From: Acidimicrobiales bacterium
GTDB taxonomy: Bacteria; Actinomycetota; Acidimicrobiia; Acidimicrobiales; SZUA-35
Assembly: GCA_047974625.1 (NCBI GenBank)
Contig: JBKECK010000054.1
Span: forward strand, 148,687 to 212,686
Direction: 5' to 3'
Length of the DNA: 64,000 nucleotides
Shown: positions 31,296-32,678 of the stretch, one piece after another
Numbering within the stretch: position 1 is the stretch's first letter
How the letters are laid out: each line of letters begins with the position of its first letter
Notes under the pieces: generated by a model
Seen by the model: the letters and a program-made list of their open reading frames with translations, nothing else
Told to the model about the DNA's origin: nothing
Database searches by the model: none
Position numbers and translations under genes: made by a program

Positions 31296-31669
31296 GGCCG
31301 GACCTCCTCGGGTTCCGACGGAGCTTCGCCCAGCCGCCCGCCGCTCCGCAACCGGGCCCGCCCGCCCACCGATCACTGGAACTGGCCGACCCGCCCTGAT
31401 CACACCGGATCCCGGTTCAGTCAAATGAGACGCAACTACCAAATTTAGCCCGGAATATGCTCCGAGAAATCAACTACTCAAGGCTCACTTGAGCGGACTA
31501 AAACCGGGGTAAAAGAACCCTGAATCCGATGAACAATCGGGCCACGCACCTTGGTCAGATGCCGCGGGAGCTATCACATCCACGCATCATCTATCCGTTG
31601 GTCATTGTTGTTGGCAATAGGGTTCAGATCTCATTGAATTCTCCCCCAGGTTCACCTAATTTGACGAAT

Positions 31670-31770
31670 GGACCGTAACTGGCGTTAGCGTGGAGCACCA
31701 CGAGGAAGCGGTTCCGCTGGCCACCACAACAGTGGTCGTGCGTACACGTATGCCGTTCGCCTGGGCGCTC
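31670..31770 (+). promoter_or_regulatory. ZTP (pfl-motif) riboswitch
   Basis: 5' subdomain: GGACCG-UAACUGGCG-...GUGG-AGCA-CCAC-GAGGAAGC-GGUUCC (P1/P2). 3' subdomain: a small hairpin GCGUA-CACG-UAUGC followed by CGUUCGCCUGGGCG. It lies upstream of folD, a classical ZTP-regulated gene. Confidence 0.75.
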
Positions 31771-31793
31771 TCGTCAGACCCTGGAGGCGCCGC

Positions 31794-32678
31794 GTGACCA
31801 CCTGCTCTCGTAGTGAACGGTTGATGTACGGTACGTCTGTCGCCCATGTCCTCTACGAACGGACACGCCGGCGGGCCACCGATTTCACCGGCGATTTCGG
31901 CCGTCCGCCGTGCCTCGCCGCCCTCCTCGTGGGCACCGATCCGGCGTCCCGCTCCATCGTTCAGCTGAAGCAGAACCGGTGCCGGCAGGTGGGGATCGAC
32001 GCCCGGATCGTCGAGCTGCCCGCCTCGACCACCACCGACGAACTGGTCGTCGCCATCCGTGAGCTGTCCGATGACGGCAGCGTCGACGGGATTGTGCTCC
32101 AGGAGCCGATGCCGAGCACCATCGACCACCGGGCCGCCTTCGAGGCCATCAGCCCGACCAAGGACGTCGACGGGGTGACCCTGGCCTCGTTCGCGGCCGC
32201 CGCCTACGACCAACCGTCGTTCCGGTCATGCACCCCGGCCGCGGTCATGACCCTGCTCAACACCTACGAGGTGCCCCTGGTCGGGGCCCACGCGGTGATC
32301 GTGGGCGCCGGCCCGGCGTTGGGCCGGCCCCTCAGCATGATGCTGCTCGCGGCCGGGGCCACCGTCACCTGCCGTGACACCCGGGCCCGTGAGATCGCCG
32401 AGGTCGTGAACACCGCTGACGTGGTGATCACCGGCACCGGCGTGCCCGGCTCCATCCCCGGGGCCTGGATCCGGCCCGGGGCCGTGGTGGTCGAGGCCGG
32501 TCCAGGCCACGGAGGCCGGGGCGACGTCGAGTTCGACACCGCCGTCGAACGGGCCTCTCTGATCACCCCGGCCACCGGCGGCGTCGGGCCCCTGGCCGTC
32601 GCCCTGCTGCTGGCCCAGACCATGGATGCCGCCCTACCCGCCGAGGACATCGCCCTCTCTGACAAGCTGACGGCCTGA
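31794..32678 (+). CDS. folD: bifunctional methylene-THF dehydrogenase/methenyl-THF cyclohydrolase FolD (divergent paralogue)
   Basis: FolD architecture: LVGTDPAS..., KDVDG, the CTP motif, a Rossmann GAGPALGRP and a C-terminal TPATGGVGP. The GTG at 31794 is preceded by GGAGG at a 6-nt spacing. Confidence 0.8.
   Translation: MTTCSRSERLMYGTSVAHVLYERTRRRATDFTGDFGRPPCLAALLVGTDPASRSIVQLKQNRCRQVGIDARIVELPASTTTDELVVAIRELSDDGSVDGIVLQEPMPSTIDHRAAFEAISPTKDVDGVTLASFAAAAYDQPSFRSCTPAAVMTLLNTYEVPLVGAHAVIVGAGPALGRPLSMMLLAAGATVTCRDTRAREIAEVVNTADVVITGTGVPGSIPGAWIRPGAVVVEAGPGHGGRGDVEFDTAVERASLITPATGGVGPLAVALLLAQTMDAALPAEDIALSDKLTA

Follow-up and report, generated by a model that had tools for sequence, protein, structure and literature searches.

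A ZMP/ZTP riboswitch aptamer in the leader of a divergent folD-like gene from a high-GC Actinomycetota genome

Identification of the aptamer

Positions 31665-31773 (+ strand) of the 64,000-nucleotide stretch analysed here (the window) constitute a genuine ZMP/ZTP (pfl) riboswitch aptamer that is ordinary for its class. The 3' end of this aptamer lies 21 nt upstream of a FolD-family start on the same strand. The riboswitch would occupy a 5' leader of roughly 125 nt, and the folD-like gene behind it stands alone in an Actinomycetota genome of high GC content; no second folD, nor any purine or one-carbon gene, was found near the element within the window. The element is very probably a functional ZTP riboswitch that controls the folD-like gene as an ON switch. 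As a riboswitch it adds little to what is known, since both the target gene and the type of expression platform have been described for ZTP elements before. The gain for annotation is a flagged leader and a likely start codon corrected by 10 codons.

31665-31773, + strand: ZMP/ZTP riboswitch aptamer, full length (RF01750, 44.9 bits; model R1, 47.8 bits)
31794-32678, + strand: divergent FolD-like gene, 294 aa, GTG start, methylene-THF dehydrogenase/methenyl-THF cyclohydrolase family (PF00763 + PF02882)

The RF01750 (ZMP-ZTP) model of Rfam matches 31665-31773 (+) over its full length (model positions 1-86 of 86); the match scores 44.9 bits, where the gathering score is 39. The E-value of this match is 4e-4 when the full 64-kb window is searched and 3.9e-6 for the 600-nt leader. 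It is the sole Rfam match across the window, and a search of the 600-nt leader for further RNA families at E-values up to 1 found none. Both the pfl identity and a run of RF01750 on the leader as its check had been put forward in a first-pass annotation of this DNA; the identity is now borne out by the curated covariance model and, as described below, by recurrence before homologous genes, covariation and lineage-specific conservation. With our own model (R1) the aptamer reaches 47.8 bits. Its Rfam score is among the lowest of the related aptamer set, and the model's three outermost P1 pairs are mismatched. From what is established for the class, the aptamer is predicted to bind ZMP.

The choice of target is also in line with the literature: folD, named earlier as a classical pfl target, ranks in the top five of the genes associated with pfl RNAs, whose ligand was predicted to activate expression (Weinberg et al. 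2010, PMC2864571).

Secondary structure

31670-31676, + strand: P1 5' strand GGACCGU, pairs with 31708-14; columns covary in the 29-sequence alignment
31677-31684, + strand: conserved junction AACUGGCG, corresponds to ACUGGCG, which is invariant in the Rfam consensus
31689-31702, + strand: P2 hairpin C-GUGG-AGCA-CCAC-G, 4+1 pairs
31702-31709, + strand: post-P2 segment GAGGAAGC, read from the sequence
31708-31714, + strand: P1 3' strand GCGGUUC, 7 uninterrupted pairs with 31670-76, 2 of them G-U
31719-31737, + strand: linker hairpin, 6 pairs, 7-nt loop (-6.6 kcal/mol, ensemble probability 0.55)
31751-31767, + strand: P3 hairpin UGCC...GGCG, whose loop holds the invariant CGCCUGGGC, including pseudoknot strand CGCC 31758-61
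31754-31767, + strand: CGUUCGCCUGGGCG, read from the sequence and placed here by the first-pass annotation as well

In this class of RNA, the ZMP pocket is made by a P1/P2 subdomain docked onto P3 through a GGCG/CGCC pseudoknot. All of the elements listed in the first-pass annotation are present where it had placed them (GGACCG at 31670-75, GCGUA-CACG-UAUGC at 31740-53 and GGCG at 31786-89 included), and several of the helices can be redrawn. P1 exists, but instead of six pairs with a bulge it is better described as seven uninterrupted pairs (31670-76/31708-14). In the closest relative, locus L004, G31671 is an A: this change turns a G-U pair into A-U in the seven-pair register and would leave an A-C mismatch in the earlier one. 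P2 was correctly located at 31690-701 (GUGG-AGCA-CCAC), but its fifth, covarying closing pair, C31689-G31702, had been missed.

Within the conserved junction, C31679 has G31705 as its partner and U31680 has G31704, and GGCG 31681-84 forms the 5' strand of the pseudoknot. The 3' strand is CGCC 31758-61, giving the four Watson-Crick pairs that had been anticipated (all G-C or C-G). The segment 3' of P2 reads GAGGAAGCG against cGgGgAgCg in the Rfam consensus; two junction positions depart from this consensus, with 'GA' in place of 'cG' after P2, and the A is found in at least nine relatives. In the 3' subdomain, GCCGUUCGCCUGGGCG at 31752-67 fits the invariant CCG..CGCCUGGGC.

The linker between the two subdomains is long (36 nt) and contains the hairpin at 31719-37, in whose loop all three differences from L004 are located. 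This linker helix was not listed in the first-pass annotation, which gave a small hairpin at 31740-53 instead. The latter is weak (-2.0 kcal/mol, ensemble probability 0.02), is imperfect in L004 and overlaps the P3 5' strand with its 3' arm, and we do not consider it meaningful.

Set beside the pfl/RF01750 class, the window element shows the same P1/P2 with ACUGGCG and P3 with CGCCUGGGC, the same GGCG/CGCC pseudoknot and the same placement in the 5' leader before a gene of formyl-THF or purine metabolism; its predicted platform, which would share sequence with the aptamer's 3' portion, would follow the ON logic of the class. Nothing categorical separates them, the differences being the long, hairpin-containing linker, the short outer P1 and the two junction positions. 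Extra linker helices have been described in natural ZTP riboswitches (PMC7484762).

A putative promoter lies directly upstream, with an L004 counterpart that reads TTGAAA, 18 nt, TAGTTT, the spacer itself being 47% identical. Transcription would be predicted to start at about 31668-31671, at the foot of P1.

31634-31639, + strand: putative -35 TTGAAT, read from the sequence, below the threshold of the sigma-70 scan
31657-31662, + strand: putative -10 TAATTT (TANNNT type), 17-nt spacer after TTGAAT

Recurrence and covariation in related leaders

Relatives of the gene were gathered by exact-protein look-ups and an alignment-based metagenome scan; a single-protein scan of genome contigs gave three distant FolD loci (33-43% identity). 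Besides the window, 28 loci carry the same aptamer ahead of a gene of this FolD subfamily, and all 29 related leaders tested with Rfam's model reach the gathering score. Scores range from 45.9 to 65.3 bits before the homologous gene in L004, L005 and Streptomyces loci, and from 42.7 to 64.2 bits in further sampled loci, where the aptamer precedes the gene in 20 of 20. Model R1, run on 92 sources, gives 29 matches; of the 20 metagenomic relatives that are closest, 16 have one.

The covariation that the first-pass annotation had proposed to look for in such leaders is observed. In the 29-sequence alignment, 91% of cells are paired, compared to 37–56% when the partners are slid, and 13 pairs have changed on both sides; the covariation score of 0.339 (0.05-0.10 for slid partners) is reached by none of 500 shuffles, with the caveat that the alignment was fitted to the model. 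P2 is 99% paired, with three of its five pairs changing on both sides across relatives, and the extra closing pair is G-C in 23 sequences, C-G in 3 and U-A in 1. The inner three pairs of P3 are paired in every relative and show eight G-C to A-U double changes. The pseudoknot is 98% paired in relatives, and one of its pairs changes from G-C to A-U in L091 and L047. The P3 of L005 is mis-assigned in the model-based alignment because of the long structured linker in this locus, and was kept as noise.

Between the window and L004, identity is 98% in the 5' subdomain, 94% in the 3' subdomain and 88% in the platform, compared to 42% in the upstream intergenic DNA. Synonymous divergence (dS) between the two is 0.47-0.58 over four compared genes.

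As a separate observation, the aptamer of this class in Actinomycetota is carried by the FolD subfamily that has PDB 4b4u as a solved member (discussed below).

Expression platform

31764-31791, + strand: SD-sequestering hairpin, proposed OFF state (GGCGC/GCGCC + CUC/GAG + CAG/CUG; 11 pairs)
31783-31787, + strand: Shine-Dalgarno (SD) sequence GGAGG, 6 nt before GTG 31794

The 5' arm of the hairpin at 31764-91 is the 3' strand of P3, such that the two helices are mutually exclusive. The hairpin has an energy of -14.1 kcal/mol in context (-12.5 alone), and its outer pairs have probabilities of 0.95-0.99 in the unconstrained ensemble. In the free ensemble the SD is paired at p≥0.9, and CGC 31758-60 can pair with 31792-96, overlapping the GUG start (p about 0.5). 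The probability that the SD is unpaired is 0.09 with the leader free and rises to 0.33 once the aptamer is enforced; the linker 31715-32 is then predicted to pair with the SD region, so that the release seen in silico is partial.

A translational ON switch operating through SD sequestration had been suggested in the first-pass annotation. The principle is supported in silico, in that the + strand scan found no terminator, the SD is predicted to be buried in the free leader and its accessibility rises when the aptamer is enforced, but the register does not hold. The proposed pairing of CGCC 31758-61 with GGCG 31786-89 is worth -5.9 kcal/mol (-8.9 extended), compared to -14.1, and is absent from the ensemble; the dominant pairing is GGCGC 31764-68 with GCGCC 31787-91. 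Pairing between core and SD is nonetheless the correct description of a different leader sub-type, as the SD pairs with the CCU of the core in L005, L007, L019, L021, L023, L033 and L037.

The SD/start region pairs with the invariant core or its flanks in all 18 high-GC leaders that were compared, and the mean probability that the ribosome-binding site (RBS) is unpaired over the compared leaders is 0.28 when free and 0.48 when the aptamer strands are blocked. Shuffling the aptamer-derived part yields, in 10 of 100 cases, an RBS that is as occluded as in the native sequence, which makes this a modest control; part of the sequestering hairpin, its CUC/GAG and CAG/CUG segments, lies outside the aptamer. 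The minimum free energy of the whole leader is no better than that of shuffles (z = 0.69) and is uninformative, a value near that of shuffles being usual for GC-rich RNA. The platform differences between the window and L004 are not compensatory within one fixed hairpin, and L004 re-registers the inner pairs.

The following mechanism can be proposed. ZMP (AICAR monophosphate) accumulates when 10-formyl-THF is short. Without ligand, the P3 3' strand GGCGC 31764-68 would close the hairpin at 31764-31791 and bury GGAGG, while the pseudoknot strand CGC could pair across the GUG start, keeping translation off. With ligand bound, these strands would be held in the aptamer and the ribosome-binding site freed. 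More FolD-like enzyme would then be made, and methylene-THF would be converted to 10-formyl-THF.

Given a functional ON-switch riboswitch, folding predictions suggest that the read-out is probably translational. The main alternative is that the aptamer is real and the read-out transcriptional, with the hairpin at 31764-91 serving as a terminator without a U-tract, or with Rho acting on the untranslated leader, and SD occlusion being secondary. The best-studied ZTP riboswitches are indeed transcriptional (PMC7484762, PMC11754884), locus L016, from a low-GC genome and with the same FolD subfamily, carries a classic stem and U-tract terminator directly after the aptamer, and the window hairpin is stable (-14.1 kcal/mol). 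Against this, the bases that follow the window hairpin are GCGUGACCACC, which includes no U-tract, and a terminator scan of the + strand of the window found no intrinsic terminator. The SD also lies within the hairpin, whose 3' end adjoins the start codon, and in 18 of 18 high-GC leaders compared it is the SD/start region, and not a U-tract, that the competing helix holds. Mycobacterial RNA polymerase reportedly needs a U-tract for intrinsic termination (a result attributed to Czyz et al. 2014). We regard a transcriptional read-out as improbable.

The predicted translational switch can be compared to known systems. In the translational ZTP riboswitch of Pectobacterium carotovorum rhtB, the invading strand includes the start codon (PMC11754884). 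Control of translation initiation and invasion of P3 from the ribosome-binding region/start codon are common to both systems, as a prediction in the case of the window; the phylum and the regulated gene are different. The invader in the window would be the SD-start spacer GCGCC 31787-91, with the SD predicted also to pair just 3' of the aptamer. The Clostridium beijerinckii pfl and Fusobacterium ulcerans ZTP switches (PMC7484762, PMC10085676) share the aptamer class and a competing helix that displaces P3 and the pseudoknot, but are transcriptional and use an intrinsic terminator with a U-tract, which the window lacks and L016 has. Across the 29 leaders of this one gene family, a single aptamer type is joined to three or more kinds of platform: in one the SD pairs with the aptamer core, in another it pairs with sequence directly 3' of the aptamer, and in a third there is a classic terminator.

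The FolD-like gene and protein

Both Pfam domains of the family are found above threshold in the window protein (PF00763, catalytic, 99.4 bits; PF02882, NAD(P)-binding, 143.8 bits). It reaches none of the NCBIfam FolD cutoffs, the best score being 263 against 475 bits and the closest margin 247 against 355. Its best solved relative is PDB 4b4u ('bifunctional protein FolD'; E 2.8e-64), which we take to be the Acinetobacter baumannii enzyme.

The NCBI annotation starts this protein at ATG 31824 (P0001, 284 aa). A start at GTG 31794 is supported because the conserved LM(D/Y)G lies 5-8 residues after the starts of homologues, codons 1-11 show only two differences from L004 (both synonymous), the same protein has also been called at 294 aa (P0121), and no SD precedes ATG 31824.

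The first-pass annotation had called this FolD atypical on account of LQEPMP. Most of that impression reflects its subfamily, which has the motifs YVRMK, LQHPVP, DVDGVT and CHSRT and a solved member in 4b4u, but the window copy is an outlier even there: of the 104 positions with conservation of 90% or more across the subfamily, it departs from 29, while the other members depart mostly from 0-8, with two at 14-15. The roles of the FolD substrate/catalytic residues and of the triad that binds the NADP 2'-phosphate are known in human numbering (PMC3368264). Like 4b4u, the window protein has both domains and keeps the equivalents of Lys56, Gln100, Asp125, Gly273 and Gly276; it differs in that Tyr52 is replaced by Ile55 and Leu101 (His in the subfamily) by Glu104. 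The triad Arg173/His196/Ser197, kept as Arg/His/Ser by 90% or more of the other subfamily members, is Ala172/Asp195/Thr196 in the window protein and likewise Ala/Asp/Thr in its sister protein P0002, in which Asp125 is also replaced by Asn. The dN/dS ratio of the folD-like gene is 0.27, compared to 0.11 in neighbouring genes, and the ORF is intact in both the window and L004 genomes. Judged by these comparisons, the regulated protein is an outlier in its subfamily under relaxed selection.

Such features could indicate that the aptamer is a decaying relic before a decaying gene, resembling its family without useful regulation. Consistent with this are the low Rfam score, the 29 of 104 near-invariant positions lost (Tyr52 among them), a dN/dS more than twice that of the neighbours, and a sub-lineage with only two members among 5.8 billion clustered proteins. 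A relic would not be expected to remain 88-98% identical across aptamer and platform at a neutral divergence of about 0.5, with flanking intergenic DNA at 42%; moreover, the single P1 change relative to L004 improves a pair, the two genomes each keep an unbroken ORF, whose dN/dS is well below 1, and the five residue equivalents named above are retained in the window. Decay is very improbable on this evidence. That GC-rich DNA resembles the pfl motif here by chance, for which one could point to the whole-window E of only 4e-4 and the score 6 bits over threshold, is effectively refuted by the expected position and strand directly ahead of a gene that is a classical target, the repetition of this arrangement at 28 further loci among relatives of the gene, and the covariation and lineage conservation.

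A spare FolD isozyme, as put forward in the first-pass annotation, is plausible. That ligand binding would yield more FolD activity is an assumption, because the enzyme is without the substrate-stacking Tyr and the NADP 2'-phosphate triad. An alternative to a simple spare copy, rather unlikely and suggested by these residues, is that the window FolD may have turned into a methylene-THF dehydrogenase that prefers NAD, or is re-specialised in some other way, and would push one-carbon units to 10-formyl-THF specifically under folate stress. The lineage consists of two metagenome-assembled genomes in which the triad has been lost, an Asp has been gained at the end of the second Rossmann strand and the Tyr of YxxxK has been replaced, and this FolD paralogue is still under purifying selection behind a strongly conserved riboswitch. 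It offers, as a lead, a small lineage with a putatively ZMP-controlled FolD-like enzyme and a remodelled cofactor pocket.

Identification and structure of the riboswitch

Rfam 15, run over the whole window at gathering thresholds, returned a single match: RF01750 (ZMP-ZTP riboswitch) at 31665-31773 (+), covering model positions 1-86 of 86 with 44.9 bits (gathering score 39). This agrees with the first-pass annotation, which had proposed a ZTP (pfl-motif) riboswitch from the sequence alone and whose strings are all in place in a reading of 31300-32100. A permissive search of the 600-nt leader brought up no further RNA families. The elements of the leader and gene are listed below.

Elements of the leader and gene (window positions; aptamer pairs in the model register)
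31634-39, +, putative -35 (TTGAAT)
31657-62, +, putative -10 (TAATTT), 17-nt spacer from -35
31670-76 with 31708-14, +, P1 (GGACCGU with GCGGUUC), 7 pairs, no bulge
C31679-G31705 and U31680-G31704, +, junction pairs
GUGG/CCAC plus C31689-G31702, +, P2 with an additional pair
31681-84 with 31758-61, +, pseudoknot (GGCG with CGCC)
31719-37, +, linker helix
31751-54 with 31764-67, +, P3 (UGCC with GGCG)
31764-31791, +, predicted Shine-Dalgarno (SD)-sequestering hairpin (GGCGC/GCGCC, CUC/GAG, CAG/CUG)
31794-32678, +, FolD-like ORF with both FolD Pfam domains

Two details of the earlier description required correction. P1 had been drawn with a bulge, which disappears in the model register, and the small hairpin proposed at 31740-53 has little stability (-2.0 kcal/mol, probability 0.02) and shares bases with the 5' strand of P3; the linker helix proper lies at 31719-37.

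Conservation of the aptamer

The closest relative of the encoded protein, P0002, is 83% identical and comes from L004, a syntenic locus with the gene order dioxygenase, LysR, hydrolase, FolD-like, AMP-ligase; the next relatives, from Kribbella, Nocardioides, Streptomyces and soil metagenomes, are ~55% identical. RF01750 is found immediately 5' of the gene in L004 (45.9 bits), L005 (49.2) and six Streptomyces loci (65.3), and in 20/20 additional sampled loci (42.7-64.2 bits). Our own covariance model, built on 12 short-linker members, detected 29 aptamers among 92 sources; the aptamer is carried by 16 of the 20 closest metagenomic relatives versus 6 of the remaining 60.

Covariation was tested on a 29-sequence alignment with the Rfam structure plus pseudoknot. 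Since this alignment was fitted to the model, its figures lean towards the structure, and the margin is still large: standard pairs fill 91% of cells (37-56% with partners slid by 1-3 columns), 13 pairs have changes on both sides, the pseudoknot has one G-C to A-U double change, and the observed covariation score was reached by no shuffle.

Compared with L004, the 5' and 3' subdomains of the window aptamer are 98% and 94% identical, the platform 88% and the linker 83%, against 42% for the upstream intergenic DNA; dS in four compared genes is 0.47-0.58. The sole P1 difference converts a G-U to an A-U pair in the model register. Because the leader has been kept while intergenic DNA and synonymous sites diverged, and the P1 change preserves the pair, the riboswitch is under purifying selection in this lineage rather than a relic.

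Expression platform

A terminator scan found no terminator-like site on the + strand. The first-pass annotation had suggested that CGCC 31758-61 pairs with GGCG 31786-89 to sequester the SD; the complementarity exists, but this helix is worth only -5.9 kcal/mol. The strongest competing structure is instead the hairpin at 31764-31791 (-14.1 kcal/mol in context), which encloses the entire GGAGG and uses the 3' strand of P3 as its 5' arm. The translational switch interpretation is supported in principle, with a different and stronger anti-SD helix. In local folds the hairpin is extended by pairing of CGC 31758-60, from the pseudoknot strand, with 31792-96 across the GUG start (-17.4 kcal/mol). 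In the free full-leader ensemble the outer hairpin pairs have probabilities of 0.95-0.99, start-codon pairing ~0.5 and the aptamer helices <0.1; enforcing the aptamer raises the probability of an unpaired SD from 0.09 to 0.33.

In the local minimum-energy fold, 18/18 leaders have the SD/start region base-paired to the invariant core or to sequence flanking it, in two registers. In one, the SD has CCU of the core as its partner (L005, L007, L019, L021, L023, L033, L037); in the other, it is paired just 3' of the aptamer, with the spacer and start codon paired to the P3/pseudoknot strands (window, L004, L014, L020, L022, L026, L030, L032, L049). In L016 (1353-1480), a locus of the same FolD subfamily in a low-GC complete genome, the ZTP aptamer is followed by a long perfect stem and U-tract, a classic terminator. 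Given this terminator versus SD/start pairing in the 18 high-GC leaders, the same gene family and aptamer are combined with expression platforms that differ by genome type.

Several controls temper the folding results. Mean RBS accessibility rises from 0.28 to only 0.48 with the aptamer strands blocked, and when the aptamer-derived part of the window leader is shuffled, 10 of 100 shuffles hide the RBS to the same degree. With the aptamer enforced in silico, base pairing is predicted between the linker 31715-31732 (CGCUGGCC...CAG) and the SD/start region 31781-31796 (p 0.4-0.75); this may be an artefact of folding GC-rich RNA or an additional layer damping the ON state. Given a functional aptamer, a translational ON switch is probably the mechanism, and is the best supported one.

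These features have precedents. Weinberg et al. (2010, PMC2864571) name folD as one of the five most frequent gene associations of pfl RNAs and reason that ligand raises expression; a shortage of 10-formyl-THF is signalled by ZMP/ZTP (PMC10882993; Kim et al. 2015, as cited in PMC7484762). Linkers between ZTP subdomains are variable, often with extra helices (PMC7484762), and in one translational ZTP riboswitch that has been characterised, the start codon is part of the invading strand (PMC11754884). Because all of its RNA features fall within this published picture, the window element is a further case of a known kind, an ordinary ZTP riboswitch whose platform is probably translational.

Gene start, promoter and neighbourhood

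The NCBI annotation of the identical protein P0001 (metagenome-assembled genome, 308-kb contig) starts at ATG 31824 (284 aa). The GTG at 31794 favoured by the first-pass annotation, 30 nt upstream, is the better-supported start (294 aa) on five lines of evidence: GGAGG lies 6 nt before it, with no SD-like sequence before ATG 31824 in a reading of 31300-32100; homologues start 5-8 residues ahead of the conserved LM(D/Y)G; similarity to solved FolDs starts at residue 9 of the long form; codons 1-11 differ from the closest relative at only two positions, both synonymous third positions; and the same protein in another assembly (P0121) is called at 294 aa.

The putative promoter, which was not reported by a consensus scan, would place the transcript start at the foot of P1. 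Its L004 counterpart is TTGAAA, 18 nt, TAGTTT, with a spacer 47% identical to that of the window. A 37-nt block (31603-31639), which takes in the putative -35 and the sequence just upstream of it, has 89% identity in the two loci (flanks, 42-47%), and TCATTG occurs twice at it (31602-07 and 31631-36). The block could be an operator or UP-like element alongside the riboswitch; no extra copies were found in the window (<=3 mismatches) or the other 97 loci (exact match).

Upstream of the aptamer, a 240-nt stretch has a G+C content of 48.5% (window, 71%). This AT-rich intergenic region holds a terminator-like hairpin with a T-rich tail (31476-31494, -), located between the putative promoter of the riboswitch and the divergent hydrolase gene; it is not conserved in L004. 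Flanked by two opposite-strand genes, the folD-like gene is monocistronic. Its neighbours are genes of aromatic-catabolism type and genes typical of Actinomycetota (catechol-dioxygenase-like, LysR, alpha/beta-hydrolase, AMP-ligase, a mycothiol-type MDMPI_N protein and an RpfB-like DUF348-G5-transglycosylase protein), with no purine or folate genes among them.

The FolD-like enzyme

What remains of interest is a divergent enzyme under riboswitch control. The ORF scores below all NCBIfam FolD cutoffs. Its LQEPMP block had been taken as atypical; this is largely a subfamily trait, since LQHPVP, DVDGVT and CHSRT are shared by relatives and by the best solved match, 4b4u. The window copy is still an outlier within the subfamily: of the 104 positions with at least 90% conservation, it differs at 29 (P0002 at 33), versus mostly 0-8 in other members and 14-15 in two. 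The match to 4b4u (E 2.8e-64) is far stronger than that to the Mycobacterium-type FolD 2c2x (E 8e-41), as would be expected of a paralogue that differs from the usual actinobacterial housekeeping enzyme; no second folD lies within the window.

dN/dS between the window and L004 is 0.27 for this gene and 0.11-0.12 for three neighbouring genes. Divergent residues are 55, 104, 172-175, 194-198, 213-215, 237 and 260-261. The Arg/His/Ser triad for the NADP 2'-phosphate is Ala/Asp/Thr in the protein and its one close relative. An acidic residue ending the second Rossmann strand usually accompanies NAD preference, and for this reason an NAD-preferring or otherwise re-specialised enzyme was considered; this is rather unlikely. 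The changes could reflect a cofactor switch or functional drift. Mapped on the human enzyme, Lys56, Gln100, Asp125, Gly273 and Gly276 are retained, and Tyr52 (the YxxxK tyrosine), which stacks on the substrate in the human protein (PMC3368264), is Ile. In P0002, Asp125 is also replaced, by Asn.

The aptamer is absent from the subfamily members at L006 (1-3837) and L017 (1-2343). Their FolD gene ends an operon with genes for a DAO/FAO_M/GCV_T protein (dimethylglycine- or sarcosine-dehydrogenase-like) and a formyl-THF deformylase-like protein, which suggests a catabolic one-carbon-oxidation role for these copies. In L003, from a Tenericutes genome, a purine riboswitch (RF00167, 3865-3964, 65.2 bits) lies directly 3' of the FolD gene and presumably controls the next gene.
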